From Burkholderiales bacterium (lineage in GTDB: Bacteria; Pseudomonadota; Gammaproteobacteria; Burkholderiales; SG8-41), in contig JAYOED010000006.1 of NCBI GenBank assembly GCA_038106575.1, positions 1 to 62,159 of the forward strand: 62,159 nt of DNA. Direction: 5' to 3'. The position numbers and the translations under genes were made by a program. The notes beneath the pieces are model-generated. The model saw only the letters and a list, made by a program, of their open reading frames with translations, was not told where the DNA came from and searched no databases. This document shows, one piece after another, positions 3,159-38,176 of this stretch (position 1 is the stretch's first letter; every line of letters starts with the position of its first letter).

Positions 3159-3908
3159 ATGTCCATCGTCGCCCCCTGGCTGCACCTGGGCTATGTCATT
3201 CCGCATCTCTATACCGACATGGACGCCTACCAGTTCTATCGCGTCGCGCCTGACGGCATGATGCTGGTGACCACTGGACTGAATCTCAGGGAATATTCGC
3301 TCGCCGCTGTCGAATCCGAGCTGCCTGCGTTGTGGAGCGCATTTGACCGGCTGAAACACAAGAAGGTGGACCGTATCGCGTTGAGCGGCGTGCCGGTGGC
3401 CTCGGTGCTGGGCCGGAAAAAGATGTGCGAGATTCTCGACGAGGGCGCGCAGCGCACCGGCATCGCCTGCGACACCGACCTCGAGGCCCATATTGCGACG
3501 CTGCAGCATTTCGGTATCACCAGGCTGGCACTCGCCACGCGCTGGCCCGAGCACGTCAACGCCGCATTGTCGAACTACCTGAAGGAAGCCGGTATCGAAG
3601 TGGTATCGCTACGCGCGCAGGGACGCAACCTTGAGCAGAACAAACTGTCGAGCCCGCTCGCCGACCATGAGCTCGCGCTGGAACTAGGTCGTGCCGCACT
3701 CGCCGCAGCGCCCGAAGCGCAGGCCCTGCTGTTGCCGGGCGGACTGTGGTTTGCCATCCATGCCGTACCGACACTTGAAGCCGAATTCGGCAAACCCGTC
3801 CTGCTCAACATCCTGTCAACGACCTGGGCAGCGCTCAATGCCGCACCGAAGCCGCTGCAGCACAAGCCCGATCCGTGTTGGGGCAAGGTGCTGGGATGTC
3901 TTGCATGA
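3159..3908 (+). CDS. Asp/Glu/hydantoin-racemase-superfamily protein (maleate isomerase / arylmalonate decarboxylase-like)
   Basis: 249 aa. The architecture resembles maleate isomerase and AMDase (RLALATRW...YLKEAGIEVV...LGKPVLLNILSTTWAAL). AGGAG RBS upstream. The stop TGA overlaps the next gene's ATG (ATGA at 3905-3908). Confidence 0.65.
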   Translation: MSIVAPWLHLGYVIPHLYTDMDAYQFYRVAPDGMMLVTTGLNLREYSLAAVESELPALWSAFDRLKHKKVDRIALSGVPVASVLGRKKMCEILDEGAQRTGIACDTDLEAHIATLQHFGITRLALATRWPEHVNAALSNYLKEAGIEVVSLRAQGRNLEQNKLSSPLADHELALELGRAALAAAPEAQALLLPGGLWFAIHAVPTLEAEFGKPVLLNILSTTWAALNAAPKPLQHKPDPCWGKVLGCLA

Positions 3909-4945
3909 GCCTGCCGGGTTTCGCCAGCAATGTCATTGAGGTCGATGATGCCACCGCGGCGAATGAACTCTATCAGCGAAACGGCTGGACCGACGGCCTG
4001 CCTATTGTGCCGCCGACCGAAGAAGCGGTCGCACGTTTTCTTGAGGCGTCGCACTGCGCCCCAGATGATGTCATCGGCATCGAGCCGGTTCGCCGGCGCA
4101 CATTGACCGCAGAAAAAATCGCCATTGCCGCAGTGATGGCCGGCTGCCTGCCTGAATACCTGCCGGTGGTGCTGGCCGCGGTACGGGCGATGTGCCAGCC
4201 CGAATACGCACTGCATGGCAGCACGGCAAGCACCGGCGGCAGCGCACCCTTCCTCGTCGTCAACGGCCCGATCCGCAACGTACTCGGCATGAACGCGACG
4301 CATAATGTTCTCGCTAACGCCTGCCGCGCCAATGCCACCATCGGCCGCAGTATCCGCCTGATCCTGCTCAACGTGCTCGGTGGCATACCGGGCCAGCTCG
4401 ACCGCTCGACGCTGGGGCATCCGGGCAAGTTCACCTTCTGCATCGCGGAAGACGAGGAAGATTCACCGTGGCTGCCGCTGTCGGTGGAACGCGGAATTCC
4501 CGCCGGCACCTCGGCGGTGACCGCATTGCAGGTCGAGTCGCCGCACCAGATCATGAATGAGTGGACGCACGACCCGCGGGAAATCCTCGATACCTACGTT
4601 GCGGCGATGCGCAGCAACCTGCTGACCTATTCGATCTGGGAAGGCAACTACGCCTTTGTCATCCCCAAGCAGCACCGCGAGATTTTCGCTGCCGCCGGCT
4701 GGAGCAAGCAGAACATCCGCGACTACACCTTTGAGAAAGCCTGCGTGAAGCGCGGCGAGTGGCGCAGCGTCGGCAAGGCCGCGGTCGCCGGCCGCAAGGA
4801 CGAAGACCGGCTTTACCGCGCGCTGCGCGCGCCGGACGACCTGCTGGTGATCGCCGCCGGCGGACCAGCCGGCGGTTTCGGCGCCATCCTGCCGCCGTGG
4901 TACGGTAAGAAATCGCTCGCCGTGACGACGCCCATACAACCCTGA
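3905..4945 (+). CDS. uncharacterised DGLPxxPPT-motif protein, stand-alone partner of the UGSC selenoprotein
   Basis: 346-aa ORF, with the start set at ATG 3905 (ATGA overlap with the upstream stop). It is homologous by eye to the C-terminal ~350 aa of the proteins at 8386..10116 and 18403..20103 (GWTDGLPIVPPT, MAGCLPEYLPVVLAAV, VVNGPI). Confidence 0.7.
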   Translation: MSLPGFASNVIEVDDATAANELYQRNGWTDGLPIVPPTEEAVARFLEASHCAPDDVIGIEPVRRRTLTAEKIAIAAVMAGCLPEYLPVVLAAVRAMCQPEYALHGSTASTGGSAPFLVVNGPIRNVLGMNATHNVLANACRANATIGRSIRLILLNVLGGIPGQLDRSTLGHPGKFTFCIAEDEEDSPWLPLSVERGIPAGTSAVTALQVESPHQIMNEWTHDPREILDTYVAAMRSNLLTYSIWEGNYAFVIPKQHREIFAAAGWSKQNIRDYTFEKACVKRGEWRSVGKAAVAGRKDEDRLYRALRAPDDLLVIAAGGPAGGFGAILPPWYGKKSLAVTTPIQP

Positions 4946-4967
4946 ACATTTCTGCAAGGAGAGTCCC

Positions 4968-5498
4968 ATGACCCTGCGCGTCCTCGACCCCCGGCAATCG
5001 GCCCACGGCGAAGCCCTGCGCCTCGCGCCGCCACTAGCCTCCCTCGACGGTGCCGTCATCGGCATGATCGACAACGCCAAGATCGGCACCGAGCGCCTGT
5101 TCGACTTCGTTGAAGAAATTCTCAAGAAGGAACACGGCGTGCGCGAATGCATCCGCCGCCGCAAGCCCGACGCATCACGACCGGTGCCGGAGGCCATGTT
5201 GCTGGAAATGCGCGGCGCCGATGCCGTGCTGGCGGCAATCGGCGACTGAGGCAGCTGCTCGTCGTGCAGTCTGCACGACGCAATCGCAGCAGAACGGCTC
5301 GGCATCCCGGCGGTGGCCATCATCACCGACCGCTTTGCGCGCACCGCTCAGTCGGTAAGCCAGGTCAACGGACTGAAGGACTATCCCTTTGCGGTGATTT
5401 CGCACCCGGTGGCCAACAACAACGATGAAGTGCTACGCGAGAAAGCGCGCATCGCGCTCGCCGACATCCTACCGATGCTGATGCAGCGATCCGCGTAA
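4968..5498 (+). CDS. UGSC-motif selenoprotein (in-frame UGA at 5247-5249 read as selenocysteine), 176 aa
   Basis: ORFs 4968..5249 and 5313..5498 share one frame and are separated only by a TGA. Reading through gives ...ADAVLAAIGD-U-GSCSSCSLHDAIAAERLGIPAVAIITD..., conserved in two paralogs that carry TGA at the same column. AGGAGAG RBS before ATG 4968. Hairpin at 5260-5280. Confidence 0.8.
5260..5280 (+). promoter_or_regulatory. putative bacterial SECIS hairpin
   Basis: The 8-bp perfect stem CGUCGUGC/GCACGACG with loop AGUCU starts 11 nt after UGA 5247-5249. Confidence 0.6.
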
Positions 5499-5508
5499 CA
5501 AAAACCCG

Positions 5509-6708
5509 TCAGTCCCGCGTCGCCACCACCTTGTCGGCGATCAGCCGGTCGATGGCCGGCCTGTCGAGTCCGATGGATTCGAGCACACCACGGGTATGTT
5601 CCCCCACCTGTGGGATATCGATGCGGGTTCCGAAGCGCTGCCCGTCCATCTCGATCGGCAATACCGGCACCTTGGTCTTGACGCCGTTGTTCAGCGTCAC
5701 CGGTGTCATGCCTTTCGAAGCATTCAGGTGCTTGTCCTCGAACAGGTCTTCAGGTTTGGCGATGGGTGCGAACGGGAGGCCAAGTTTTTCGCAACGGTCC
5801 ATCAGCTCCTGCTTGCCCATCTTCGCGAAGATTTCGCTGACGATGGGCAGGATGCGCGGCCGCTGCTCGACGCGCTGTGGATTGGTTTTCATGTCCTGAT
5901 CGTTGAACAGCTCCATCAGCCCGAACGATTCGCAGAATACCTTCCACTGCGTGTCTGTCACCACGCCGACGAACACCAGATCACCGTCCTTCGTCTTAAA
6001 GTTGTCGTAGAGTGCCCACGCGCGCACGCGGTCGGGCATGGGCTTTACCGGCTTGCCGGTGGCGAAGCCTTCGAGCATGTGCTGCGCGACCAGGAATGCA
6101 TTGTTCTCGAACAGCGCGCTCTGCACGTACTGACCCTTGCCGGTGGCATGACGTTGATTCAGTGCAGCGAGTATCGCCACCGCGCCGAACACGCCGCCCA
6201 TCACGTCGTTGACCGAGGCACCAGCGCGCAATGGCCCGAAACGCCCGCCGGTCATGTAGGCGAGCCCGCCCATCATCTGCACCACTTCATCGAGTCCGGT
6301 GCGATGATCGTACGGCCCGGGCAAAAATCCTTTCAGCGAGCAAAAGACCAGCTCGGGCTTCAGCTTGCTCAATGCTTCATAGCCGAAGCCGAGCTTGTCC
6401 ATGGCACCGGGACGGAAGTTTTCAGTGACCACGTCGGCGCTGGCAATCAGCTTCAGCACCAGTTCGCGGCCTTTCTCCGACTTGAGATCGACAGCTAAGC
6501 TTTTCTTGTTGCGGTTGTAGGTCGGGAAAAACCCCGCGCCCGAAGCCGTCAGCTTGCGGGTGTGGTCGCCGTCAAGCGGCTCGACCTTGATCACCTCGGC
6601 ACCGAGATCGGCAAGCACCAGGCCGCAGGTCGGGCCCATCACCACGTGGCAGAACTCGATGACGCGGATGCCCGCGAGCGGTAGTGGCTGAGTCATGTCT
6701 GAATCCAT
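5509..6708 (-). CDS. family III CoA-transferase (CaiB/BaiF type)
   Basis: 399-aa ORF with the N-terminal pattern PLAGIRVIEFCHVVMGPTCGLVLADLGAEVIKVEP. The start could instead be the ATG at 6696. It is co-directional with the rhodanese gene upstream, with an 88-nt gap. Confidence 0.85.
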   Translation of the reverse strand: MDSDMTQPLPLAGIRVIEFCHVVMGPTCGLVLADLGAEVIKVEPLDGDHTRKLTASGAGFFPTYNRNKKSLAVDLKSEKGRELVLKLIASADVVTENFRPGAMDKLGFGYEALSKLKPELVFCSLKGFLPGPYDHRTGLDEVVQMMGGLAYMTGGRFGPLRAGASVNDVMGGVFGAVAILAALNQRHATGKGQYVQSALFENNAFLVAQHMLEGFATGKPVKPMPDRVRAWALYDNFKTKDGDLVFVGVVTDTQWKVFCESFGLMELFNDQDMKTNPQRVEQRPRILPIVSEIFAKMGKQELMDRCEKLGLPFAPIAKPEDLFEDKHLNASKGMTPVTLNNGVKTKVPVLPIEMDGQRFGTRIDIPQVGEHTRGVLESIGLDRPAIDRLIADKVVATRD

Positions 6709-6796
6709 TCAATATGGCTGTGTTGCCGGATGAAATTACTTTGCAGGCAATTCCCCGCGGGAAGGCCGACTATATCGCGAACCGGAAAACATGCTA

Positions 6797-8386
6797 CTAG
6801 GGGTAGCGGCGAAAGCCAAAATCGGAATCGCTGGCCACTGCATCAAGCAGCTCCACTTCCCATCTCAGGTATTCACGCATTGCCTGTTCAACGTTGTCCT
6901 TGCGGTCGAGCGCGCGATAGCTCAGGTCATCGGCAGCGCCGGTCATACGCGCGTCCCCAGTTTCCAGTCCGTAACCCGCCAATTGCCACGCAGCAGTGCC
7001 GCCAGTAAGCGCCTTGACTGGGGTTGCAGTCAGGGTCGCCGCGTCGGCCGCAGCCAGACGCGCCAGCATTTCTTCGGCTGCCGTGAACACCAGCAGCGCC
7101 GCCTGGGGAATTTTTATCAGCTGGTCCCGTATCCGGGAACGCACCACGTGCCACGCACCCGGAATATGTCCCTCGCGATACTGCAGGCTGCTACCAAGGT
7201 CGGCCACCTGCGCCTTGCCGTCTGCCAGCAGGCTCTGCAATTCCGCCGCCGCCACTGTTGCGGAGCATGGCTGTGCGCCGTCGAGCAGTGTCACCGGCAC
7301 CGGCCCGCGCTCGGTCAACGATGCCTCATCACAGGCCAGCACGTGCACTTCATCGTGACCCATCTGCGCCAGCCATGCCGCGGTCATCGTTGCACGAACG
7401 CCATCATTGTCGGTTAGTACTACCACCGACGGACGCACCGCGATGAAGGTATCGGTTGCCTGCACCAGTTGTCCGCCAGGTGCGGATAAGGCTCCCGGCA
7501 GATGGCCGGCTTCGAATTCCTCAGGGGCGCGCACGTCCAGCAGGTACAGCGTGCGCTTGCCGTCGGCCCGCAGTGCCTGCAACCGGGCAGCATCAATACG
7601 GCGGATGCCGAAGCGCTGCGCCACACGCTCTGCCGCCTGCTGTGCCCAAGCCCTGCCTTTGGTCGAAGGCGGCGGAACCGCCTCGGTGCGGCCGTGGTTC
7701 AGCTGCAGGCCAGCCAGCTTCCAGCCCTGGGTGCCGTCCTTCAGTGCATAGACCGGGTTCGGAAAACCAGCATTGATCAGCACCTGAGCGCCGATGATGC
7801 TGCGCGTGCGTCCGCCGCAGTTGACCACAACCGTCGTCTGCGCGGAACGCACGAAATCGGTCATGCGGTACGGTAGCTCCGCGCTCGGACAATCCCAGGC
7901 ACCGGGTATGCTGTTGCGACGGAATTCCGCCATTGGCCGGCTGTCGACGACCACCATGTCCCTGCTAGATTTCATCCACGCGTCGAGTTCGGTTGCCGTA
8001 ACTTCGCGCGGCGCATCTTCGTGCTGGATGTATTCGCCGAAAGCCTTGCTCGGCACGTAAACACCGGTGTAGAGCCGGAATCCCGCGGCCTTCCACGCCG
8101 ACGTTCCGCCATCGATCAACTGCACGTCGGCATAGCCGCCCGCCAGCAGTTTCACCGCAGCTAATTCCGCCAGGCCTTCGCCGCCGTCACAAACGACGAT
8201 ACGCACGTTCTTGCGCGGCAGCAGCGCCTGCACACGCAACTCGAGCACGCTCAACGGTACATTCGACACCCGCAGCAGATGACCATCTCCCGAATAGACA
8301 CCCTCCTCGCGTACGTCGAGTACGGCAATTTCTTCGCCATCGTCGAGCAGTCCCCGTAGTTGTCGAGGCGTGATCCGTCGCACCAT
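6797..8386 (-). CDS. four-domain rhodanese-like sulfurtransferase
   Basis: 529 aa from ATG 8386 (MVRRITPRQLRGLL...). Four rhodanese repeats are present. The active-site loops carry Cys in repeats 1 (VVCDGGEG) and 2 (VNCGGRTRS) but not in repeats 3 (LTDNDGVR) or 4 (FTAAEEM). The ATG overlaps the upstream TGA stop (TGATG). The 612-aa track ORF is an upstream extension. Confidence 0.8.
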   Translation of the reverse strand: MVRRITPRQLRGLLDDGEEIAVLDVREEGVYSGDGHLLRVSNVPLSVLELRVQALLPRKNVRIVVCDGGEGLAELAAVKLLAGGYADVQLIDGGTSAWKAAGFRLYTGVYVPSKAFGEYIQHEDAPREVTATELDAWMKSSRDMVVVDSRPMAEFRRNSIPGAWDCPSAELPYRMTDFVRSAQTTVVVNCGGRTRSIIGAQVLINAGFPNPVYALKDGTQGWKLAGLQLNHGRTEAVPPPSTKGRAWAQQAAERVAQRFGIRRIDAARLQALRADGKRTLYLLDVRAPEEFEAGHLPGALSAPGGQLVQATDTFIAVRPSVVVLTDNDGVRATMTAAWLAQMGHDEVHVLACDEASLTERGPVPVTLLDGAQPCSATVAAAELQSLLADGKAQVADLGSSLQYREGHIPGAWHVVRSRIRDQLIKIPQAALLVFTAAEEMLARLAAADAATLTATPVKALTGGTAAWQLAGYGLETGDARMTGAADDLSYRALDRKDNVEQAMREYLRWEVELLDAVASDSDFGFRRYP

Positions 8387-10116
8387 CAAATCCGGCACTC
8401 GTCGGCGGTGCAACCCAGATCGCGATCCGATTCGGCCAGCAGCCGGTCGAATGACTCCGGCGTGCGGATCACCCGTCCCACGACTGCAGGCGAATGCGCC
8501 TGCAGCCACTGGCTGTGCGTCGGATGGTCGCCGCCGGCGACCACCAGGATCAGGTTGTCGGGTTTCTGCGCGATCGGCCACGGATCGAGCCTGATGCTGT
8601 CGCGCGCCACCGGATTGGCATCGATCTCGATCCACGCCGGCCCGCCGCCGCGCTTGAGTTGCGCCATCGGAATCTTCGAATTTTCCCAGAGAAAATCACG
8701 CAGCTTCTTCGGCGTCCAGCCGAGCTTCGCCATCATGCCCGCGACCACCGGCGAGATCAGCATCGCGCCGGGCGTGCCCTTCTCCCATCCTGCCAGCGCG
8801 GCAAGATTCGGCGTGCGCATGAAATCCGCCATGCGCCACAGGCCCTGGGTGATGTCCTCTTCCGGCGTTTCCTTTTTTGCGCCACGGCGGCGGATGTTGC
8901 TGACGCCGCTGGCGAAAAACACCGACACTGCGTTTGTACCGGGCTCGAAACCGTGGCGCTGGGTCGCATGCGGCGCCCAGCCCTCGGGCAGGCTCGCCTC
9001 ATCCTCGGCAAACACAGCGTTGGTGTAGCGCATCGCGCCGAAGATCGCCATGGTGCCGATGCCCGGCAGCGCGCCGCCGACGTTCTGCTGCAGCAGGCGC
9101 AGCGCGCGGCCGATGCTGGCACCGGCGGGCCGCTGCGGATCAGGGCCGAGACAGCCAAAACCGGAATTGAGGCGGATGTCCTCCGCAATCGGGCCGTTGA
9201 CGATGACGACCGGAAAAGGGCTGCCCGAAGTCGCCTGCACCTGATCGAACAGCGTTGCGGGATCGAGGCAGGCCTCAACCGCAGCAACCAGCACCGGCAG
9301 GTACTCGGGTCGACCCCCGGCCATCGCCAGCGCCACCGCGCAGGTCTCGACCGTGGTGACGCCGCCGCGCGGCGGGAACTTGCCCAGCACCTGTGTGCGC
9401 GGGTAAGCCGAGCCGCGCAGTATCCAGTCGACGCGCTCGCGTGTCGCCGGCCACACCGGCAGGCCGTCGCCCCACAGATTGGTGATCAGCAGGTTGTTGG
9501 CTTTCTGCAGCGCGTCCTCATAGGTTTTCCCCTCCACGCTCAACATTGGCAGTTCGCCGTCTGCGGATTGCGCGTAATCGGATTTCCATTTCATCAATCC
9601 GTTGTAGAACTCCTTCTTGCGGGTGGAAATCGCCGTCAGATCGCTTCCCGGCAGGAACATATCGATCGGAAACGTCACCATCGCCGCATCGGGCGCAAGA
9701 CCGAGGCCCGACACCGCATTCTTCATCACGCCGACAAAATCCGTCCGCGTCAGGGTGACGGTGGGTATTCCCAGTGTTTCTATCCTCGCGGCAGCACGGC
9801 CGCAAGCGGTGGCGCAGGAGCCTCAGGCCGCGTTGCCGACGATGACCGCTTCAACGCCGCTTTTCTGGACCAGCGCAGCGGTCTCCTCGGTGGGAATCAG
9901 CACATTACCCTGGGGATAGGCATCGATCGGCAGCAGTTCCGCAGTCGGATAATCGGCCTTGATCAGATCGCGCAGCAGCGGCAGCATGCGAAACGCCTGC
10001 CACTGCTCGTTACTGACGAAACCGATGCGCTTGCCGTCGAGGGTATCGATGCGTGGCGCAAACGGCAGGGTGACCTCCAGCGCGCCGGACGGATCATGAA
10101 ATTCAAGTGTGACCAT
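8386..10116 (-). CDS. fused UGSC-motif selenoprotein + DGLPxxPPT domain (UGA at 9823-9825 read as Sec), 576 aa
   Basis: ORFs 9823..10116 and 8386..9729 share one frame and are joined across a TGA: ...VEAVIVGNAA-U-GSCATACGRAAARIETLGIPTVTL... The C-terminal part has NLWGDGLPVWPAT, MAGGRPEYLPVLVAAV and IVNGPI. GGAGG RBS before ATG 10116. Confidence 0.8.
9785..9806 (-). promoter_or_regulatory. putative bacterial SECIS hairpin
   Basis: Stem CUUGCGGC/GCCGCGAG (8 bp, one G-U pair) with loop CGUGCU, starting 17 nt after the UGA. Confidence 0.55.
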
Positions 10117-10142
10117 TGGTTAAACCTCCTTCGCCGATAATA

Positions 10143-11324
10143 CTAGCTGAGCAACATCTGCTGTATTCCTGCGTCCGCATTGTCTACTCCCAGACGATGT
10201 AGTGCCCCCACCCGCACCCCCAGCAGGCGGATGCGACGGTCAAGCGGCACGCGTTTCAGGCATTCCCCCGCGGCGCGGCGAATAACTTTTGCATCCTGCG
10301 TCGGCGTCTCCAGCGTCAGGTCGCGGGTGACGGTGTGAAAATTGTCGAAACGGATTTTGAGCCCTATGGTGCGTCCGGCGTGACCCTTGCGCCGCAGATC
10401 GCCGGCCACGCGCTCGCACAATGCCGTAAAAATCTCCGACAGCCGCGCCTTGTCGCGTACCGCATGCAGATCATTGTCGAACGTCGTCTCGCGGCTGATC
10501 GACTTGGGTTCACTCCAGGTTTTCACCGGACGGTCATCACGGCCATGCGCTGCTTCGTGCATCCACGCACCGAAGCTGTTGCCGAAATGCCTGACCAGCA
10601 GCGCCGGATCGGCCTGCGCCAGCTCGCCAACCGTGCGTATGCCCAGCTCCTCCAGCTTGACGTTCGCCTTCGGCCCGATGCCGTTGACCTTGCGCACCGC
10701 CAGCGGCCACACCAACTTGCGCACGTCGTCGTCGCGGATCACGCTGATGCCGGCGGGCTTGTTGAGTTCGGAGGCGATCTTCGACAGTAGCTTGTTGCGG
10801 GTAATGCCGATCGAACACGACAACTGCGTCGCTTCGCGCACCGCGCGCTGGATATCGGTGGCAATCGAGCGTACCCGCGCCCACGGATCGGGCGCACCTT
10901 CGGTAGCACTGGCCGCCACCACTTCCGTGAGATCGATGTAGATTTCATCAATGCCGCGATCCTCGACCTGAGGCGCAATCGCACGCACGGCATCCTTGAA
11001 TAGTCGCGAATAGCGGCGGTAGGCGTCGAAATCCGCCGGCAGCAGGATCGCATCGGGCGCAAACTTCGCCGATTTCATCAGCCCCATGCCCGAAAACACG
11101 CCGAGCGCCCGCGCTTCGTACGTCGAAGTCGTCACCACGCCACGGCCGGTATAGCCGCGCAGCGTGGCGAAGGTTCCGGTTTCCGCCTCATCCTGCACGC
11201 GCCGCCGTCCACCGACCACCACCGCCTTGCCGCGCAATTGGGAATAACGCAGCAATTCGACCGACGCGTAGAAGGCGTCCATGTCGAGATGGGCAATAAA
11301 GCGGGCGGGCGCGGCGGGTTCCAT
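10143..11324 (-). CDS. dinB: DNA polymerase IV (Y-family)
   Basis: 393 aa from ATG 11324 (MEPAAPARFIAHLDMDAFYASVELL...). Y-family palm, finger and little-finger regions are recognisable. The 518-aa track ORF is an upstream extension. Confidence 0.85.
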   Translation of the reverse strand: MEPAAPARFIAHLDMDAFYASVELLRYSQLRGKAVVVGGRRRVQDEAETGTFATLRGYTGRGVVTTSTYEARALGVFSGMGLMKSAKFAPDAILLPADFDAYRRYSRLFKDAVRAIAPQVEDRGIDEIYIDLTEVVAASATEGAPDPWARVRSIATDIQRAVREATQLSCSIGITRNKLLSKIASELNKPAGISVIRDDDVRKLVWPLAVRKVNGIGPKANVKLEELGIRTVGELAQADPALLVRHFGNSFGAWMHEAAHGRDDRPVKTWSEPKSISRETTFDNDLHAVRDKARLSEIFTALCERVAGDLRRKGHAGRTIGLKIRFDNFHTVTRDLTLETPTQDAKVIRRAAGECLKRVPLDRRIRLLGVRVGALHRLGVDNADAGIQQMLLS

Positions 11325-11418
11325 ATTGCGACAACCATGATACCGACCACGGGTGACAGCAGCACAGGGTTGGGTGTTTAATCGTGCGCTCCGCAATCCA
11401 GACCGACAGAAACCGATC

Positions 11419-12147
11419 ATGACTGAAGTCACCGCCGCCCTCCGCTCCGAATTTGCCCCCACCGGCACCCTCCGCGTAGGTCTCAACATGAGCAATTTCC
11501 TGCTGACCCGCACCGAAGCCGGCAAGCCACGCGGCGTAGCCCACGACCTGGGCATGGAGCTTGCCCGCCGCCTCGGCGTGCCCGCTGAGATGGTGCCGCT
11601 GCCGAATCCCGGCGCGCTCGCCGATGCCGCGGCCAAGAACGTCTGGGACGTGGGTTTTCTCGGCGCCGAACCTGCGCGCGCCAATGAAATCGATTTCACT
11701 GCGGCTTACGTCGAAATCGATTCGACTTATCTGGTACAGCCCGGTTCCACACTGAAACACGCCGACGAAGTCGACCGCAAGAGTGTGCGCATCATCGTTC
11801 CGGAACGTGCAGCCTACGAGCTCTATCTGTCACGCACGATCAAGAATGCCGAACTCGTAAAGGACAAGGGGGGAGACCTTTGCTTCCAGCGCTTCGTCGA
11901 CGAGAAATTCGACGCACTGGCCGGACTCAAGCCACGGCTGCTGTCCGATCAGGCCAAGCTGCCGGGATCGCGCATCGTTGACGGCCGCTTCACTGCCGTG
12001 CAGCAGGCCGCCGGCGTACCGAAGGGTAGGCCCAACGCAGCGAAATACCTCGCTGCCTTCATAGAAGACGTCAAAGCTTCAGGGCTGGTTGCAAAAGCGA
12101 TCAAGAACAACAACGTGGTCGGTCTGACCATCGCCGCTGCAGCCTGA
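11419..12147 (+). CDS. family-3 solute-binding-domain protein (PBPb type)
   Basis: 242 aa from ATG 11419 (MTEVTAALRSEFAPTGTLRVGLNMSNF...). It resembles polar amino-acid binding proteins. No obvious signal peptide. Start uncertain (the track gives 11353). Confidence 0.65.
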   Translation: MTEVTAALRSEFAPTGTLRVGLNMSNFLLTRTEAGKPRGVAHDLGMELARRLGVPAEMVPLPNPGALADAAAKNVWDVGFLGAEPARANEIDFTAAYVEIDSTYLVQPGSTLKHADEVDRKSVRIIVPERAAYELYLSRTIKNAELVKDKGGDLCFQRFVDEKFDALAGLKPRLLSDQAKLPGSRIVDGRFTAVQQAAGVPKGRPNAAKYLAAFIEDVKASGLVAKAIKNNNVVGLTIAAAA

Positions 12148-12162
12148 CTCAGGCGCAGTTTC

Positions 12163-13011
12163 TTACTGAGGACGCTCGCCGCTAATCTGAACGCGGTGCA
12201 TCATGCGCCGCGCTCTGTTGTCGAACGAATCGCGGCGGTGGATCACGCAGCGGTTGTCCCAGATAAGGGTATCACCCTGCCGCCACTCCTGCCCCCAGAC
12301 AAACTGCGGCTGTGAGGCATGCGCCCAAAGCCAATCGAGCAGTTCCTCGCTCTCTTCCAGCGGCATGCCGATGATCCAGGCATTGCGGCGGCGGCCAAGA
12401 GCCAGTGCCGGGCGTTTGGTCAGCGGATGCATTCGGAAGATTTTGTGCTGTGCTCCCGGCGCCTCGCGCGGATCCTTCACTTCTGAAAATCCTTTCCGCA
12501 ACTGGCCGGCGCTGTTGTAGGTCTCGTCGTGGATCAGCATCTTGCCATCGAGCTTTTTCTTCAGCTCCTCGGGCAGCGTGTCATAGGCCAGATACTGATT
12601 GGCGAAATAGGTATTGCCTCCAGCCGGAGGCACCTCCAGTGCATGCAGTATCGCGTAAGTGCAGGGTTTCACGCGATAGGACATGTCGGTGTGCCATATC
12701 GCTTCACCGTTGCCGAGGTTGCCCAGCGGATGGCCGTTCTCGGTAAGATTGGAAATCACCAGAATATCGGGATAGTCATCGAGGTAGGGCTTACCGATGA
12801 TGCTCATCCCCGGGGGCTCCAGCGGACCCAGTGTCTTCCCCAGCGCAACCAGTTGCGCATCGGAAATCAGCTGGTTGCGCACGACGACCACTAGATGTTC
12901 GAGCAGCGCCTGCTGGATGGCATCGACCGATGCAGTATCGAGCGCGACCAGATCCACTCCGGCCACCTCGGCACCGCAGCCCTTGCCTGATGGGATGATA
13001 CGGGTGCCCAT
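12163..13011 (-). CDS. TauD/TfdA-family Fe(II)/2-oxoglutarate dioxygenase
   Basis: 282 aa, H-x-D motif in IWHTDMSY, C-terminal ...WDNRCVIHRR. Confidence 0.85.
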   Translation of the reverse strand: MGTRIIPSGKGCGAEVAGVDLVALDTASVDAIQQALLEHLVVVVRNQLISDAQLVALGKTLGPLEPPGMSIIGKPYLDDYPDILVISNLTENGHPLGNLGNGEAIWHTDMSYRVKPCTYAILHALEVPPAGGNTYFANQYLAYDTLPEELKKKLDGKMLIHDETYNSAGQLRKGFSEVKDPREAPGAQHKIFRMHPLTKRPALALGRRRNAWIIGMPLEESEELLDWLWAHASQPQFVWGQEWRQGDTLIWDNRCVIHRRDSFDNRARRMMHRVQISGERPQ

Positions 13012-13029
13012 CGCGATCTACCCTTGGTC

Positions 13030-14469
13030 TTACAAGCCCGCCTGGGTCACGAACTTGCCGACCAGGTACGGCTCCATCGCCTCGGTGCCGCCCTCCGAAC
13101 CGTAGCCCGAATCCTTGACGCCGCCGAATGGCACTTCAGGCAGTGCAAAGCCGAGATGGTTGATGGTCATCATGCCGGTTTCAACCTGCGCTGCAATCGC
13201 GTTCGCTGTTTTCGCCGACTTGGTCCACGCATAGGCCGCGAGTCCGTAAGGCAAGCGGTTGGCTTCGGCCACTGCATCATCAAACGTCTTAAACGGATTA
13301 ATGATTGCCAGCGGGCCAAAGGGCTCGGTGTTCATCGCCATTGCGTCGATTGACAGCTCGGTCACCACAGTCGGCTCGAAGAAATTGCCTTTTTCTCCGA
13401 TCGGATAGCCGCCGGTCTGTACCTTGCCACCCTTTTTCTTGGCATCTTCGACATTGGCTACCATCGCACTCTGCCGACGCGGGTTGGCCAGCGTCGCCAT
13501 TTTGGTGTCCTTGTCGAAGCCGTCGCCGACCTTGATCCCCTTGGCGCCTTCGACGAACTTGTCGACGAACTTCTCGTAGATGCCTTCTTGGACCAGGAAC
13601 CGCGTCGGAGAAACACAGACCTGCCCGGCATTGCGGTACTTGTGCGCCAACATTGTTTTGGCCGCCACTTCGACATCGGCGTCATCGAAAATGATTACCG
13701 GCGCGTGACCGCCGAGCTCCATCGTCGCACGCTTCATGTGCTGTCCCGCCAGCCCCGCAAGCTGCTTGCCCACCGGCGTTGAGCCGGTGAAGGTCATCTT
13801 GCGGATCACCGGATGAGGAATCAGGTAGCTCGAGATTTCCGCTGGGCTGCCGTAGACCAGGTTGATCACGCCTGCCGGCACTCCGGCGTCGACGAATGCA
13901 CGCACCAGTTCCGCAGGTGATGCAGGAGTTTCCTCGGGCGCTTTCAGGATGATCGAACAGCCAGAAGCCAGCGCCGCTGAAAGCTTGCGCACCGCCTGGT
14001 TGATCGGAAAATTCCAAGGCGTGAAAGCGGCGACCGGGCCCACCGGCTCCTTGACCACCAGCTGATAGACGCCCTCGGCGCGTGCCGGAATCACCCGGCC
14101 GTAAGCACGGCGGCCCTCCTCGGCAAACCAGTCGATCAGATCGGCGCCTGCCAGCGTTTCCATTTTCGCTTCGACCAGCGGCTTGCCCTGCTCAAAGGTC
14201 ATGTAAGTCGCCACGGTATCCGCGCGATCGCGAAACAGCTGAGCCGCCTTGCGCATGATCTTGCAGCGCTCGAATGCCGACACCTTGCGCCAGACCTTGA
14301 AACCGGCATCGGCAGCTTCCAGCGCGCGGTCAAGATCAGCCTTCTCGGCATAGGCCAATGTTCCGATCTGCTGATGGTTGGCGGGATTGACCACTGGAAT
14401 CGTGCGGCCGGAAGCGGCGGCACACCACTGGCCGTTGATATGGAGCAACGTGTTCGGATAGGCGGACAT
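13030..14469 (-). CDS. NAD(P)-dependent aldehyde dehydrogenase (succinate-semialdehyde dehydrogenase-like)
   Basis: 479 aa, with the ALDH motifs MELGGHAP and the catalytic Cys region [11 protein letters not shown]. Confidence 0.9.
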
Positions 14470-14542
14470 GACGAAAACCCTTACAGATAAATTGAACAGA
14501 GAGGCCGAAGGATAAACCAGTTTCGCGGTGGGGCGCAGCCGG

Positions 14543-15361
14543 TCAGTCGCTGATCTTCCGGAAATAGGCCTTGTTAGCGATATCGACCACGCTCATGCCC
14601 GCGGCGACGTCACAGTTGCGCTCTTCCTCCCCGGCCGAAAGCGCCTGCGCACGGGCCAGCACCTCCGCAATGCGGTTCCTTGGGATAAAACACACGCCAT
14701 TGTCGTCGGCAACGACCAGATCGCCCGCGCCGACAGGTACCCCGCAGATCTGCACCGGTCCGTTGATCGCCACGGTCTCGACGCGCCACTTACCGGTAAT
14801 CAGGCTGACGCCACGCGCCCAAACCGGATAACCGATGCTGCGTGCGGTGGCAATGTCGCGCGTCGCACCATCGACGATGGCGCCAGCTTCGCCCTGACGC
14901 TTGCCGACGTTGGCAGAATTGCCGCCGAGGCTGGAGATGTGCTCGACGCCTTCGATCACTAGCACGTCGCCGGGCTGCGCGAGATTGTGCGCCTCGATAT
15001 CGGCCTGTTTTGATTTGCGCTCCATCGCACCGAGCGTCGGCGGCACCGACTGCATGATGTTGCGCACGGTCAGCGCCGGCCCCACCATGCGCGCGCCGGG
15101 TAGCATCGGATTCAGTTTCCCAGCAGGCACTGCGCCGTGGATACCTAGTTCATCCATCGCATCGGACACCGTGCTGGCGAGGTCGGTCAGCGTGAGAAAG
15201 GCGTCGGTCACGGCCTTACCGGGACGCGGAATGTCGCGCATCACGATGCGTGCAGGATTGATCTTGCCGGTCAGCAGTTTGTTAGGCAATGCAGTGGTTT
15301 CCCCAATAGCGGCACACACAGCGTGCACCATGTGGATGCAGGCGATGATACCAAGAGTCAT
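14543..15361 (-). CDS. RraA-family protein (regulator of RNase E / HMG-aldolase-like)
   Basis: RraA core GDVLVIEG...[24 protein letters not shown]. The start is uncertain (candidates 15397, 15361, 15331) and none has a convincing RBS. Confidence 0.7.
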
Positions 15362-15417
15362 TGTGGGATACTTTGGTGAAAATAGTCTTGGCCGCAACCG
15401 GCTTGGAGGAACACATC

Positions 15418-16284
15418 ATGACCCTTAAAACACGCCGCCTGTCCAACGCGCTTGGCGTGGAACTGTGCGAGATCGACATCTCGAAGCCGATGAGCGAGAG
15501 CACGTTCGGCGAAATCCACCGCCAGTTTCTCGATCACGGCATCCTATTGCTGCGCGACCAGAACGTCAGCCGCGAACAGCACATCGAGTTCAGCCGCCGC
15601 TTCGGCGAGCTTGATGACCACGCATCGCTTCCGCGCGACCGCCACCCTGACTATCCCGAACTGCTGCTGGTCACCAACCGTCCCAACGCCGACGGTTCGC
15701 CGTCGGAATCGCGCTATACCGGCCGCCAGTGGCACACCGACCTGTCCTACACCACGGTGCCGGCGCTGGGTTCGCTGCTCAAGTGCTACAACCTGCCCGA
15801 AGTTGGCGGCGACACATTGTTCGCCAACATGACCATGGCCTACGAAGCGCTGTCCGACGGCATGAAGAAACTGATCGCCGATCTGCACGGCATCCATCTC
15901 TCGGGCACGCGCAAGATCAACGTCGCCGATGCCGGAGCCGCACGCCGCGACGAAGTGATGAAACTCAATCCGCCGATTGCGCAGCCGGTGGTGCGCGTGC
16001 ATCCCGAAACCGGACGCAAGGCGCTGTATCTCGGCGAGAAAGTGCGGCGCTTCGATGGTATGACCGAAGAGGAAAGCAAGCCGCTGATCGATTACCTGAA
16101 CAAACACTCCACCAAACCGGAATTCGTCTACCGCCATCAATGGCGCGAACACGACATCCTGGTCTGGGACAACCGCCGCACCCTGCACCAGGCGCTGGGC
16201 GACTTCGACGAAACCCAGCTGCGCCACATGGAGCGCACTACGGTAAAAGGGACTCCTTCGGGTTACGTCGTCAGTAACGGTTGA
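15418..16284 (+). CDS. TauD/TfdA-family Fe(II)/2-oxoglutarate dioxygenase
   Basis: 288 aa from ATG 15418, with a GGAGGA RBS 8 nt upstream. WHTDLSY motif, C-terminal VWDNRRTLH. Confidence 0.85.
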   Translation: MTLKTRRLSNALGVELCEIDISKPMSESTFGEIHRQFLDHGILLLRDQNVSREQHIEFSRRFGELDDHASLPRDRHPDYPELLLVTNRPNADGSPSESRYTGRQWHTDLSYTTVPALGSLLKCYNLPEVGGDTLFANMTMAYEALSDGMKKLIADLHGIHLSGTRKINVADAGAARRDEVMKLNPPIAQPVVRVHPETGRKALYLGEKVRRFDGMTEEESKPLIDYLNKHSTKPEFVYRHQWREHDILVWDNRRTLHQALGDFDETQLRHMERTTVKGTPSGYVVSNG

Positions 16285-16290
16285 CGCTGC

Positions 16291-16782
16291 TCAGCTCTGG
16301 GCGAAAACCGTTTCGATCAGCAGATCGATCGCCGCAGCCGCGAACGCATGCATGTTGGCGACGCGGTCTGTGCTGCCGGTCTCCATCGTGATCGCGCGTT
16401 CGACTGCCGGACCGACGACTGCAAGACAGGCGTGTCCCGCCGCGTAGCCGTAGCGGCTGCCGGTCGGCCCGGCAGCGCCGGTTTCTGTCAATGACCATTC
16501 GGTTGAAAGCTTTTCGCGCACGCGGCGCGCTTTCAGCAACGCATAGACTTCGGTGGAAGGCGTCATGTCCTTCATCTCGGCATCACTGATGCCGAGCAGT
16601 GCGCGGCGCAGTTCATAGGTATAGACCACCAGCCCGCCACGGCAGCAGGCTGAAGCACCGGGCACCGCTAGCAGCGCGGCATTGATCAACCCGCCCGCCG
16701 AGGATTCGGCGACGGCGATCATTTCACTGCGCGCGCTCAACAGTTTCACCGCACGTTCAGCGCGGAGCAGCAGTTCTTTCAT
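16291..16782 (-). CDS. CinA C-terminal-domain / PncC-like nicotinamide-nucleotide amidohydrolase family protein
   Basis: 163 aa from ATG 16782 (MKELLLRAERAVKLL...), with IAVAESSAGGLI as in CinA/PncC. Confidence 0.75.
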   Translation of the reverse strand: MKELLLRAERAVKLLSARSEMIAVAESSAGGLINAALLAVPGASACCRGGLVVYTYELRRALLGISDAEMKDMTPSTEVYALLKARRVREKLSTEWSLTETGAAGPTGSRYGYAAGHACLAVVGPAVERAITMETGSTDRVANMHAFAAAAIDLLIETVFAQS

Positions 16783-16810
16783 GTTGACCTTAATCTCTAG
16801 AGAATATATT

Positions 16811-18403
16811 TCAGTGCGGTGCACGCCTGATCATTTCGCCCGGCAGCGCATCGCTGCGGTTGCCGTGTTCTAGTACTGGCACGCCGTTGACCATAACCGC
16901 GACAACGCCAACCGCGAACTGGTGCGGGTCAGCATAGGTCGCACGTTCGGCGATGGTTACCGGGTCAAATACGGTCACATCGGCACGGCAGCCTGGACGC
17001 AACAGACCTCGGTCAGCCAGCCCAAGCGCCGCAGCCGAACGCCCTGTCATCTTGGATACCGCGGTTTCCAGCGGCAGCAGGTTCTCCTCGCGCACGTAGC
17101 GCCCGAGCACGCGGGCGAAGGTGCCGTAGAACCGCGGATGCGGTTTACCCTGGCCGGTAATCCCGGTCGGTGCAACTGCGTTGCCGTCCGAACCCACCAT
17201 CACTTCGGGAGCCCGCACGAATGCACGCACGTCATCCTCGGAAATTGATTCGACGACCACCCGAGTCTGGCCGCGGTCGGCAATAATGTAGTCGAGCGCT
17301 GCGTCGAACGGGTCCTTGTTCTGTTCCAGCGCAATCTGCGCGATGGTTTTGCCGGCGTGATGTCCAAGATCAGGCGATATCGAAATACGCACCGCATCCC
17401 AGGAGCGGATTCTTCCAAAATTGTTCAACCCGCCTGCGGCGATCTCGTCACGAACCCGTGCACGAACCGCCTCGTCGCCCAGCCTTACCAGCATGGCATC
17501 GATACCGTCCTGCTGCAGCCACGACGGCATCAGATTGCGCAGCGGATTGGATGCGGCGGTGTACGGATACTGGTCGCAGTCAATCTGCACGCCATCCGCA
17601 CGCGCTGCGGCTAGCCGCGCGAGGAAACGCTCCACAGTGCCCCAGTTGTCAGTACCCGACACCTTGGCATGCACAATCTGCACATGGACTCCCGTCTGCG
17701 CGCCGAATTCAATCGCCTCCTCGGCGGCATCGAACACCGCGTTGGCTTCGTCCCGCAGATGGGTGAAATAGCGCGCACCGTGGCGCCGCAGTACGCGACC
17801 GAGTTCGACCATCTCTTCGCCGCGCGCATACGACCCGGGCGCGGTAAACAGTCCTGACGACAGCCCCAGCGCTCCGGCTGCGAGCGCCTCCTCGAGCAAG
17901 GACACCATCAGCGCAAGCTCCACCGGTGTGGGTTTTCGAGCCTCCATACCCATGGCCATCAGGCGCAGCGTGTTGTGACCGACCAGCATTACGCGATTGA
18001 CAGCTGTGGCCGGATAGTGTGCCGCATAATCAGCGTAGCTCGTATCGCGGAATTCCAGCCACGGCGCGCTAGGCGAAAGGTATTGGCGTAGCGCGGCGGC
18101 GCGTCCCGGCAGGCAGGGTGCACAGGAATAACCGCAATGCCCGATCACTTCGGTAGTCACACCCTGGCGAATCTTGCTCTCAGCCTGCGGCATCAGCGGC
18201 AAAGTCCAGTCCGAATGTGTCTTGATGTCGATAAAACCGGGGGCAACCACCAGGCCCCGCGCATCGATCACCCGCGCACCGGTAACAGGCAGGTCACGAC
18301 CGACCGCTGCGATACATCCGTCTCGCAGCGCTACGTCAGCCGACTGTGGCGGGCCGCCGGTGCCGTCAATGACGGTACCGCCACGTACAACGATCGACTC
18401 CAT
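16811..18403 (-). CDS. N-acyl-D-amino-acid deacylase (D-aminoacylase) family amidohydrolase
   Basis: 530 aa from ATG 18403 (MESIVVRGGTVIDGTGG...APGFIDIKTHSD...EVIGHCGYSCAP). The ATG overlaps the upstream selenoprotein's TGA stop (TGATG). Confidence 0.85.
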   Translation of the reverse strand: MESIVVRGGTVIDGTGGPPQSADVALRDGCIAAVGRDLPVTGARVIDARGLVVAPGFIDIKTHSDWTLPLMPQAESKIRQGVTTEVIGHCGYSCAPCLPGRAAALRQYLSPSAPWLEFRDTSYADYAAHYPATAVNRVMLVGHNTLRLMAMGMEARKPTPVELALMVSLLEEALAAGALGLSSGLFTAPGSYARGEEMVELGRVLRRHGARYFTHLRDEANAVFDAAEEAIEFGAQTGVHVQIVHAKVSGTDNWGTVERFLARLAAARADGVQIDCDQYPYTAASNPLRNLMPSWLQQDGIDAMLVRLGDEAVRARVRDEIAAGGLNNFGRIRSWDAVRISISPDLGHHAGKTIAQIALEQNKDPFDAALDYIIADRGQTRVVVESISEDDVRAFVRAPEVMVGSDGNAVAPTGITGQGKPHPRFYGTFARVLGRYVREENLLPLETAVSKMTGRSAAALGLADRGLLRPGCRADVTVFDPVTIAERATYADPHQFAVGVVAVMVNGVPVLEHGNRSDALPGEMIRRAPH

Positions 18404-20103
18404 CAACGTCGCCCCGGCATCGCAATGGCCTTGCACACTGGAAACCCCAGTACCCCGTTGTGCGCGAACACGTAAATGCTGTTGCGGCCGAGATCGCCGG
18501 TGACAACGATCTGATAATCCCCGGGCCTCCATACCACGGGCACCAGCCGCTCCGGATCATCGGACTCGTGGAACAGCTTTGGAATGCGCCCGGCCTCGTG
18601 TTCCTCCTTCAGATTCCATGTCGGCTTCTGCGTCCAGTCGCGGAGAATGCGCTCGAAACGGTGAGCGGGCATGCGCGCCCGCGCAAACAGTTCCTCGCGG
18701 AATTTCTGCTTCGACCAGCCGCTGCCGGCGATGGTCTCGGCGACGATCGGCGACATCAGAATCAGCGGCCGCAGCGTGTCGTAGCCCTGCCCTACCGAAA
18801 ACATGATCTGCCATGAATACTGGCTGATCACCGCGTCGGCGATGTAAGGCATCAACTCTTCGGGTTTCGATCCCGACACCGACGAAATGTGGTTGCCGCC
18901 GGTGTAGCGCCCGACCGACAGCGCGTTGGTGCCTGCGGCGAAACCGTAATCGGCGCAGTTCGGCGTCCAGCCGATTTTCTTCACCACGTCCTCGTTCTCG
19001 GCCACCACCACGCGCCAAGTGTTGCCGAAAGTGGCCTTGTCGTTGCCGTGCGGCAGGAAGCCAGCGATGTTGCGCAGGCACAGCCGCCAGAAGCGGCCGA
19101 CCGTGGAATTAGCCTGGAAACCATCGCGCATCACGCCCTGCGTGTAATTGAAACCGAGTTCCTTGATCACCGGGCCGTTGAGGACGATCAGGTTCTCGCC
19201 GCCGGGGGTATTGCCGCTGTGCTCTACGCCATAGTTGTGATCCGCCATCGCTTCCACCGCCGCCACCAGCACCGGCATGTACTCCGGGCGGCAGCCCGCC
19301 ATTACGCCGTTGACTGCGGCGCTCCACACCGTCGCCGTGCGGTTGTCGGGCAACAGCACGCCAATGACTTCATCGGGTTTGCGGTCGGTATATTTTAAGA
19401 AAGCCTCGACCTTCTCCACCGTAGGCGGCACGACCGGCAGCCCGTCCGACAGCTGGTTGGCGATAAAATATTCGTTGATCTCTTCAAATGAGCCGGTGCA
19501 GACGACATCACGCGCCCCCGGTTCGCCGCTGACGGTTTTCGCCGCCGGCATGGTCAGCAGGTTGTCGATCACGCTGTTAAGCGTCAGCTCGCGCACGTTC
19601 TGCTGCAACGCTTCCTTGCTCTGCAAGCCAGGATGGCCACGCACCGGTGCCACCGCAATGTTCGGAAAACCTAAACCCTGCGAGGCCGCCTTTGCCAGCG
19701 TCATGAAGCTCTCACAGACCAGCGTCGAGGAGGGAATCCCTGCGCCTTCCGCCGCCACACTCGCCCGCAACACGGCGGGCGTGCAGCTTCCTCAACAACC
19801 CATCCCGGAAACGACGGCGTCGGCACCGAGCTCGCGAAGCTTCTGCGGCAGGTTGGCCACCACATTACGCTCGTCACTGCCATGGGTATTGCCGAACAGA
19901 TCCCAGTGCAGGAATTTCACGCCCGGATATTTCGCCGCCAGGCTTTTCTCAAGCTGCTCGAACACCTCGTTGCCGCGGAACACATAGTCCCACACCCAGG
20001 CGATGGTTTTGCCTTGCAGCGTATCGAGCCGTTTCGCCAGCGGTTTGACCTTGGCCTGGCGCGGACCGCGCGGCCACAGCGCCGCGTATTGCCGATCTGT
20101 CAT
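18403..20103 (-). CDS. fused UGSC-motif selenoprotein + DGLPxxPPT domain (UGA at 19792-19794 read as Sec), 566 aa
   Basis: ORFs 19792..20187 and 18403..19773 share one frame and are joined across a TGA: ...ADAVVSGMGC-U-GSCTPAVLRASVAAEGAGIPSSTL... The C-terminal part has NQLSDGLPVVPPT, MAGCRPEYMPVLVAAV and VLNGPV. Start set at ATG 20103, preceded by an AGGAG RBS. Confidence 0.8.
19762..19781 (-). promoter_or_regulatory. putative bacterial SECIS hairpin
   Basis: 7-bp perfect GC-rich stem CGCCCGC/GCGGGCG with loop CGUGUU, starting 11 nt after the UGA. Confidence 0.6.
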
Positions 20104-27180: not shown

Positions 27181-27302
27181 GAAAAAAGCATTTATGGATG
27201 ATTGCGTATATCAAATGAGGGTGTCAACATCGGCCTATTCACCCTGATGCCGCACGCTTGCCCGGGCAAAGCCGAGCGCGGCACCACCCCGATGGAGACT
27301 GC

Positions 27303-28772: not shown

Positions 28773-28915
28773 TTGAACGAACTTTTGCTCGCCAGAACCG
28801 TTAGGGTTTCTTCCATTCTGGCGGAGCCCATCGGCATGGCTTGATGCATTAAATATACCAACAACAACGAAAACGACCGTTCCAGCAACCCGCTTTTTTT
28901 CGAGGAGGAATCCAG

Positions 28916-29878: not shown

Positions 29879-29881
29879 ATC

Positions 29882-33372: not shown

Positions 33373-33550
33373 GGGGGTGAAGATTCGAATCGGGTGAAAG
33401 ACGCTCGATTGTGGCGAAGCACCTCTGGCAGATCAAGCGCCGCAGCGGATGTCGATCATGTGGACGCATCACTCAGCCCGCATCGCGGAATTACCGGTCA
33501 GACCGCAGCGAAATAATGGTAGAAACCGTTTTTGGCTAGCATCCCCGATC

Positions 33551-36253
<2,703 letters not shown>

Positions 36254-36273
36254 ACCCGCTTCCTGATCCCGTA

Positions 36274-37137: not shown

Positions 37138-37175
37138 TCCGTCGTCCCTATATACTCACATCAGGAGGAGAACCC

Positions 37176-38141: not shown

Positions 38142-38176
38142 CTTCAGTACAAACCCGAACCCAACAAGGAGTTTCC

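Follow-up and report, generated by a model that had tools for sequence, protein, structure and literature searches.

The DNA analysed here, hereafter the window, is a stretch of 62,159 nucleotides from a Burkholderiales bacterium of the SG8-41 lineage (assembly GCA_038106575.1, contig JAYOED010000006.1, positions 1 to 62,159 of the forward strand). It carries three copies, named A, B and C, of a pair made of a UGSC module, a small selenoprotein with selenocysteine (Sec, U) in a U-G-S-C motif, and a second, larger domain marked by DGLPxxPPT and MAGC motifs, referred to below as the large domain. Their positions, and those of the hairpins downstream of the Sec codons, including the selenocysteine insertion sequence (SECIS) of copy A, are as follows.

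3905..4945, plus strand: large DGLPxxPPT/MAGC domain of copy A, a separate gene of 346 aa (translation)
4968..5498, plus strand: stand-alone UGSC selenoprotein of copy A, 176 aa, with TGA (5247..5249) as Sec codon, flanked as GD-U-GSC
5260..5280, plus strand: SECIS hairpin of copy A, 9-bp stem and GUC loop, with G23-U24 (counted from the U of UGA)
8386..10116, minus strand: copy B, UGSC and large domain in one frame, 576 aa, Sec codon TGA at 9823..9825
9785..9806: hairpin downstream of the Sec codon of copy B (fold prediction)
18403..20103, minus strand: copy C, UGSC and large domain in one frame, 566 aa, Sec codon TGA at 19792..19794
19754..19787: hairpin downstream of the Sec codon of copy C (fold prediction)

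Translation bore out the arrangement described in an earlier, sequence-only reading of this DNA, namely that copy A is split, with the large domain before UGSC, and that B and C are fused, with UGSC before the large domain. The three conserved blocks quoted in that reading are found in the large domains. In copy A, the ATG of the large-domain gene (3905) overlaps the stop of the upstream gene as ATGA, homologues of its product are 344-347 aa long, and the UGSC gene follows after 22 nt, preceded by an AAGGAG ribosome-binding site. In copy B, a ribosome-binding site lies ahead of the ATG at 10116; the N-terminal UGSC part covers about 9568..10116 and the large domain, as delimited with a hidden Markov model (HMM), covers 8458..9567. 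Copy C has AGGAG ahead of its ATG at 20103, a UGSC part at about 19516..20103 and a large domain at 18406..19530 (HMM). The three large domains are significantly similar to one another: A and B share 32% identity (BLASTP E 4e-35), A and C 34% (E 4e-44), and B and C are 29% identical over 554 aa that span both modules (E 7e-50). A six-frame scan of the 62-kb window revealed no further [U/C]GSC in a UGSC-like frame and no further DGLPxxP(P/A)T.

On the sequence evidence, the TGA codons of the window are read as selenocysteine, because the frame and the homology run on across each of them, a conserved SECIS hairpin shows compensatory changes, and natural homologues carry cysteine at the same site. 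Homology is in frame on both flanks of each of the three TGAs, and the homologues with Cys at the Sec site read CGSC, CGAC, CGGC or CGTC. At the RNA level, 159 homologous UGA sites from related loci, corresponding to 141 unique sequences, were compared. Counting from the U of UGA, nucleotides 14-22 pair with 26-34, and the loop is G23-U24-N in 137 of the 141; the classical bacterial SECIS, known from E. coli fdhF, has the same geometry, and a G23-U24 loop is required by SelB. In this register 89% of the cells are standard pairs, versus 11-48% after a shift of the 3' partner by 1-3 nt, and pair 21-27 is C-G in 129 sequences, G-C in 8 and U-A in 2, a compensatory pattern. The hairpins of copies B and C are placed differently from that of copy A and have GU in the loop, and their subtypes comprise too few sequences for covariation. 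Single-sequence hairpin energies (z-scores) were not significant as compared to shuffles, and no Rfam family reached its gathering threshold in the window; we consider both results uninformative. No tRNA-Sec was found in a tRNA scan of the window, and no selA, selB or selD among the open reading frames scanned.

In copy A (window 5259..5279) and at the homologous sites (loci L001-L162), the SECIS stem-loop doubles as the coding sequence of the conserved peptide S-S-C-S-(L/V)-H-D, which directly follows U-G-S-C; part of the conservation of this peptide may be an RNA constraint, not a protein one. Public gene calls for the fused selenoproteins begin after the Sec codon or end at it, and most are named "hypothetical protein", some fused relatives being called "UGSC family (seleno)protein" by NCBI. 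The database protein P0271 corresponds only to the post-TGA part of copy C (18403..19773), and the stand-alone UGSC genes of loci L081 and L082 are called as two fragments each.

The association of the two modules was surveyed from both sides. Starting from the large domain, 80 loci were collected, on contigs from one genome per species. In 72 of the 80, UGSC and a large domain are same-strand neighbours. Since some loci have more than one large domain, positions were also tallied copy by copy: 68 copies lie directly upstream of UGSC, 10 directly downstream of it in a frame of their own, and 2 are fused to it. Of the 84 UGSC modules of these loci, 82 have TGA as Sec codon. The eight partnerless loci comprise three truncated contigs, three without UGSC in the locus, one with UGSC 4 kb away and one with UGSC on the opposite strand only. 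Starting from UGSC, 80 metagenome loci were collected with the post-Sec half of the module as query. TGA is present in all 80. The large domain lies directly upstream in 64 of them and, separated by one gene, 1.5 kb upstream in a further one, so that 65 of 65 testable loci are paired; at least 1.3 kb of sequence is missing on one side in the other 15, which provide no counterexample. Two loci considered as bearers of a partnerless UGSC gene (L150 and L154) were rejected as such, their downstream sequence being merely missing. Overall, the adjacency spans more than eight phyla in both search directions.

Domain architectures were counted in the 150 best representative clusters of large-domain proteins. 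The large domain stands alone in 56 of them. In another 64, it bears an N-terminal extension of 45-130 aa, recognisable as the post-TGA half of UGSC in 32; the other 32 extensions are probably of the same origin, that is, Sec-type fusions called after the TGA. This amounts to about 64 gene calls cut at the Sec codon among these 150 clusters. Full-length fusions of UGSC and large domain without any stop account for 18 clusters, 13 of them with CGxC. The reverse order (large domain, then UGSC) is found in three clusters, cut at the TGA, such as P0148 which ends in "...AVVTAIGD". Seven clusters are tandems of two large domains (P0121, P0129, P0131, P0135, P0143, P0147 and P0255; locus L163). These proteins measure about 710-740 aa and have mostly lost the DGLP..PPT and MAGC motifs. 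Finally, two clusters combine two large domains with UGSC (P0204, 1254 aa; P0263, 1226 aa). In P0204, a hydrophobic segment at the N-terminus is accompanied by acidic repeats rich in Cys and by a sortase-like LPKTG motif, and UGSC is replaced by CGLC. These features suggest a surface-anchored, Cys-based version in a Gram-positive organism.

Fusion in both orders and near-obligate adjacency across phyla are strong evidence that UGSC and the large domain form a functional unit. In agreement with the earlier proposal of a joint function for the two parts, AlphaFold, given a 130-sequence alignment, yielded a high-confidence model (predicted local distance difference test score, pLDDT, 93.4; predicted template modelling score, pTM, 0.93) of P0244, a natural fusion of the Cys type (566 aa, CGTC) that shares 34-37% identity with close relatives of copy C. 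The pLDDT drops below 70 only in one loop and in the linker between the domains, and the model implies a defined packing of the two domains.

A simpler account would be that the two genes hitch-hike in a common operon, the fusions being artefacts of reading through true TGA stops. The public calls that end at TGA and the non-significant single-sequence hairpin energies go in this direction. Nevertheless, the SECIS covariation and the full-length natural fusions with Cys are at odds with true stops, and adjacency over more than eight phyla in both search directions, with fusions in both orders, is at odds with hitch-hiking. This evidence refutes the account, to which we give practically no credit.

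The UGSC module itself belongs to a named family. The PF24696 model scores 170.8, 72.8 and 93.8 bits with copies A, B and C, respectively (gathering score 25), so that all three are members. With NF041046 ("UGSC family (seleno)protein"), copy A reaches 131.9 bits, over the equivalog cut-off of 125, and copies B (43.6 bits) and C (46.4 bits) fall under it. Each copy also has the U-G-S-C motif that marks the family, its Sec being encoded by an in-frame TGA followed by a SECIS. The family is known but functionally unsolved, and the three genes add new members to it. UGSC was described as a selenoprotein of unknown function (PMC1976440), "UGSC-containing protein" being the name given by Zhang and Gladyshev (PMC1976440, PMC2398784). 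[quoted passage not shown] Such a Sec:Cys ratio of about 12:1 fits a chemistry in which selenium is hard to replace. In a 2026 review, UGSC is still listed among the uncharacterised selenoproteins, and a partner is not mentioned (PMC13188914).

The 2008 study also reported, in its Fig. S1A, a "UGSC/Unknown_1" fusion in GOS data, Unknown_1 having a conserved Cys (PMC2398784). Because every UGSC fusion that we found involves the present large domain, Unknown_1 is very likely the same domain. The link between UGSC and the large domain put forward in the sequence-only reading is real, but it is not new, since UGSC was already a named family and this fusion dates from 2008 (PMC2398784). [quoted passage not shown]

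In the P0244 model, residues 1-180, which form the UGSC part, fold into five alternating beta-alpha units, and the redox motif is positioned between strand 92-98 and helix 103-116. In a Foldseek search against the PDB, this part matched the flavodiiron protein 7r2p (probability 1.0, 161 columns), together with 2yxb (B12 domain of methylmalonyl-CoA mutase), 1o1x (RpiB) and 2eq5 (hydantoin racemase). These flavodoxin-like or Rossmann-like matches vanish when the large domain is searched alone. UGSC is thus predicted to be a flavodoxin-like alpha/beta domain, in which U-x-x-C follows a beta-strand and opens a helix. A thioredoxin-like fold, which had been guessed for UGSC in the literature, was rejected in view of the five beta-alpha units of the model and of its flavodoxin-like/Rossmann-like PDB matches.

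The large domain has no such named relatives. The three window copies gave no Pfam or NCBIfam match, even at E values up to 10, nor any PDB sequence or profile match, and no Pfam family recurs among 115 diverse members scanned. The family is nevertheless large: it has at least 7982 matching proteins at E values up to 1e-5, every name supplied by a source among the 120 matches listed being "hypothetical protein", and the 6427 clusters mentioned above are those at E up to 1e-3, with 1843 at E up to 1e-30. Hosts include Beta-, Alpha-, Gamma- and Deltaproteobacteria, Dehalococcoidia, Methylomirabilota/Rokubacteria, Binatia, Actinomycetota and Acidobacteriota, among others; Sheuella amnicola NBD-18 (locus L003) and Hyphomonas neptunium are examples of carriers in culture.

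Conservation was assessed over 145 diverse homologues, with residues numbered from the ATG at 3896. Positions conserved in at least 90% are D33, G34, P36, P39, T41, T71, A76, A82-G83-C84, P86, P90, G124-P125, N146, G150-R151, L155, G174, E185 (100%), W192, G200, V208, G268 and G322, and the near-invariant polar set consists of D33, T41, T71, N146, R151 and E185. The AlphaFold model of large domain A, also from the ATG at 3896, has a pLDDT of 95.3 and a pTM of 0.94. In this model, C84 (92% conserved) is found between helices 72-82 and 86-99 and at the N-terminus of a helix, where reactive thiols typically reside.

Foldseek found no PDB match below E 1e-3 for large domain A. The closest were weak ones to class I (Fe-S) fumarate hydratase (6uq9; E 2.5e-3, template modelling (TM) score 0.24) and to the cyclic amide hydrolases of the Toblerone fold (5hy4; E 3.6e-3, TM 0.21); overall, the weak matches have TM scores of 0.18-0.31, root-mean-square deviations above 11 A and probabilities of at most 0.6. 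Assignment to an Fe-S hydro-lyase or to the Toblerone fold was rejected, because the fit is poor and a single conserved Cys provides no site for a three-Cys cluster. The model therefore points to a fold without a solved relative, in line with the sequence-only reading, which could not place the domain in any family. Autoproteolysis within MAGC, between G and C, as in a pyruvoyl-forming site of the PrdA/GrdE kind, was also considered and not adopted, C84 being between two helices in the model and absent in copy B.

Copy B has MAGG in place of MAGC and a C-terminal GC-x4-C tail (window 8386..8420). It belongs to a clade (window B, P0334, P0336, P0123 and P0124) in which Cys84 is changed to Gly and the tail reads "DRD(L/I)GC-x4-C-(R/L)I". 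The tail is absent from the C84-less clusters outside this clade; it may be a mobile redox tail standing in for C84.

The sequence-only reading had likened the UGSC module to the Sec region of the glycine reductase and D-proline reductase selenoproteins GrdB and PrdB. Both share a beta-strand, U-x-x-C, a helix, G-I-P, another strand and then an H-P-like segment, and in both the Sec forms far outnumber the Cys forms. The comparison set consisted of 21 GOS reads labelled "proline reductase" or "GrdB" in the supplement of PMC2398784; the four reads tested match TIGR04483 (PrdB) at E 1e-13 to 2e-24, as well as GrdB-family models, below the equivalog cut-offs, and are thus superfamily relatives. 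Alignment of 84 UGSC sequences with this PrdB/GrdB-like set by hhalign gave a probability of 71.7%, P = E = 3.5e-5 and a score of 38.2 over 78 columns. In this alignment, Sec falls on Sec and the Cys at +3 on Cys; GIP is matched by GI(P/S)T, and the H-P segment by the region G(H/R)xxGxP. The controls scored lower, the reversed alignment giving 14.1 and the best of 20 shuffles (8-column blocks) 31.2. The alignment therefore suggests that the resemblance seen earlier reflects common descent, UGSC being probably a remote homologue of the Sec-bearing half of GrdB/PrdB only.

The current PF07355 model stops just before the Sec. Moreover, the GrdB/PrdB superfamily has no PDB entry, so that Foldseek could not find this relation. 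For the large domain, no similarity to PrdB-like sequences was seen (hhalign P 0.55). In PrdAB and GrdBE, substrate binding is the task of a second subunit, with which the Sec subunit cooperates. UGSC differs from PrdB/GrdB in that their N-terminal part is absent and in that its partner is not a pyruvoyl proprotein. In addition, its hosts are largely aerobic or non-Stickland bacteria (Burkholderiales, Dehalococcoidia, Methylomirabilota).

Each of the three copies is contiguous with another gene:

3159..3908, plus strand: arylmalonate-decarboxylase-like protein of the Asp-Glu-racemase superfamily (Pfam Amdase, 1.7e-21; NCBIfam below cut-off)
6797..8386, minus strand: four-rhodanese protein of 529 aa (Pfam Rhodanese, 4 stretches)
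16811..18403, minus strand: Amidohydro_3 metallohydrolase (Pfam; NCBIfam below cut-off)

The first is translationally coupled to copy A through the ATGA overlap, and its homologues neighbour the pair in 1 of the 80 related loci. The start of the four-rhodanese gene overlaps the copy B stop (TGATG), with neighbouring homologues in 0 of 80 loci, and that of the Amidohydro_3 gene overlaps the copy C stop in the same way (TGATG), with homologues in 3 of 80. These junctions suggest that each copy is co-translated with a different neighbour. The four-rhodanese protein has an unusual architecture.

A conserved third gene was searched for with phmmer, using 14 window neighbours against the 80 loci, and with Pfam on 139 immediately flanking genes from 80 genomes. 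None was found by either route. With phmmer, the best were a short-chain dehydrogenase/reductase (SDR; 16/80) and the family III coenzyme A (CoA)-transferase (8/80), the others reaching at most 5. The 139 flanking genes spread over 142 Pfam families, none occurring more than six times (Amidohydro_2, 6; Abhydrolase_1, 6; Pyr_redox_2, 4; CoA_transf_3, 2). Consequently, the Bug receptors, racemases and acylases around the pair, which had been taken as pointers to its substrates, are not a general feature. Because the neighbours vary so widely, the pair is probably a self-contained module of general use, not a part of one catabolic pathway; substrates may differ among the three paralogues.

The rhodanese neighbour bears on whether the pair might act on sulfur or selenium itself, as a carrier or transferase of persulfide, perselenide or selenide, instead of on an organic substrate. 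The translational coupling of copy B to the four-rhodanese gene would suit such a function, as would the layout of a (seleno)thiol relay, with U, the Cys at +3, C84 and, in the B clade, the CX4C tail. On the other hand, none of the 80 related loci has a homologue of the rhodanese neighbour, Rhodanese is not among the 25 commonest Pfam families of the 139 flanking genes, and no sel, suf or isc gene adjoins the pair in the window. We hold this trafficking role to be improbable.

The family III CoA-transferase gene is convergent in the window (5509..6708, minus strand). It occurs within 6 kb of the pair in the 8 of 80 loci counted above, some of them outside Burkholderiales, and is interleaved with the pair in L081 (3857..5104) and L082 (1740..2960 and 4651..5874). 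This recurrence is a weak hint that the substrates of some subfamilies are acyl-CoA compounds or organic acids. Farther away in the window, two regions (27219..31240 and 33398..41460) hold two sulfatase genes flanking a TctC receptor, as well as genes for an aconitase (951 aa), a phosphoenolpyruvate (PEP)-mutase-family protein and MmgE/PrpD, a set that resembles methylcitrate-cycle genes. Finally, an open frame of 1917 codons at 45802..51555 (plus strand) has a high GC content at third codon positions.

Taken together, the three loci very probably represent one predicted two-part selenoenzyme, made as two coupled polypeptides in copy A and as one chain in copies B and C. As to its chemistry, the sequence-only reading had inferred a reductive or isomerising reaction. 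We propose a reductase mechanism, in view of the PrdB/GrdB alignment and of the Sec:Cys ratio of about 12:1. The large domain would bind and activate a small substrate, on which the UGSC selenol would act as nucleophile or reductant. The Cys three residues after Sec would then resolve the intermediate to a selenenyl-sulfide, and a general thiol system would re-reduce the enzyme, possibly via C84. In the B clade, which lacks C84, re-reduction would perhaps proceed through the C-terminal CX4C tail. Resolution through a selenenyl-sulfide is the scheme of D-proline and glycine reductase. For the mechanism as worded, with the selenol acting on a substrate held by the large domain, we see arguments for and against as evenly balanced.

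Several observations speak against this reading. UGSC has no direct match to PF07355, TIGR01918 or TIGR04483 (NCBIfam at E up to 0.01, Pfam at E up to 10), and the hhalign probability is only 72%. Pfam detects no PrdA/GrdE-like pyruvoyl partner beside any of the three copies, nor a GrdA/PrdC-type family among the window neighbours; likewise, no PrdA/GrdE or GrdA/PrdC-type family is among the 25 commonest families of the 139 flanking genes. No thioredoxin or thioredoxin-reductase gene is consistently linked to the pair, Pyr_redox_2 being found in only 4 of the 139. C84 is missing in 12 of the 145 homologues, copy B included. Five of the 18 full-length fusions (P0130, P0150, P0162, P0167 and P0172) lack the redox motif, with for example "GVGGGASG" at this place, and judging from these sequences the UGSC domain can persist without redox chemistry. 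Lastly, there are tandem large-domain proteins that lack a neighbouring UGSC (for P0121, none within 4 kb upstream or 0.5 kb downstream); the tandems may be a UGSC-independent offshoot.

Alternatively, the large domain would be the whole enzyme, for instance a Cys84-dependent hydrolase, isomerase or lyase, and UGSC its private redox keeper or switch, in a thioredoxin-like role. The 92% conservation of C84 at a helix start, the classic redox U-x-x-C of UGSC, the weak fold matches of the large domain to hydro-lyases and cyclic amide hydrolases, and the fusions that keep the large domain without the redox motif are all compatible with a keeper. Yet thiol keepers are normally Cys-based and shared, whereas here Sec prevails over Cys by about 12:1 and the partner is private and often fused. 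Furthermore, copy B and 11 other clusters are without C84 yet keep U-x-x-C, and the PrdB/GrdB alignment sets the Sec in a catalytic position. A keeper role for UGSC is thus unlikely in our view, if still worth more credit than sulfur or selenium trafficking.

The two-part selenoenzyme with Sec in catalysis is the reading that we favour. What is new here is the near-obligate two-way pairing, the fusions in both orders and the flavodoxin-like fold, as well as a probable, statistically supported link to the PrdB/GrdB Sec region and the recognition that the partner is a large unmodelled family without a solved structural relative. This family numbers more than 6000 clusters at 50% identity, and neither Pfam nor NCBIfam has a model for it. 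The outcome is not a new kind of system; it turns an "unknown small selenoprotein" into a testable object in two parts. Since about 2005-2008, UGSC has figured in lists of the most abundant selenoproteins of prokaryotes, still without a function (PMC2398784; PMC13188914). More tentatively, and with somewhat more doubt than confidence, we propose that UGSC and the large domain constitute a widespread, phylum-spanning class of Sec-dependent reductases in aerobic or non-Stickland bacteria, with a catalytic subunit of unseen fold and a kinship to glycine and D-proline reductases through the Sec module only. If true, such a class would explain the high abundance of UGSC in aquatic metagenomes.

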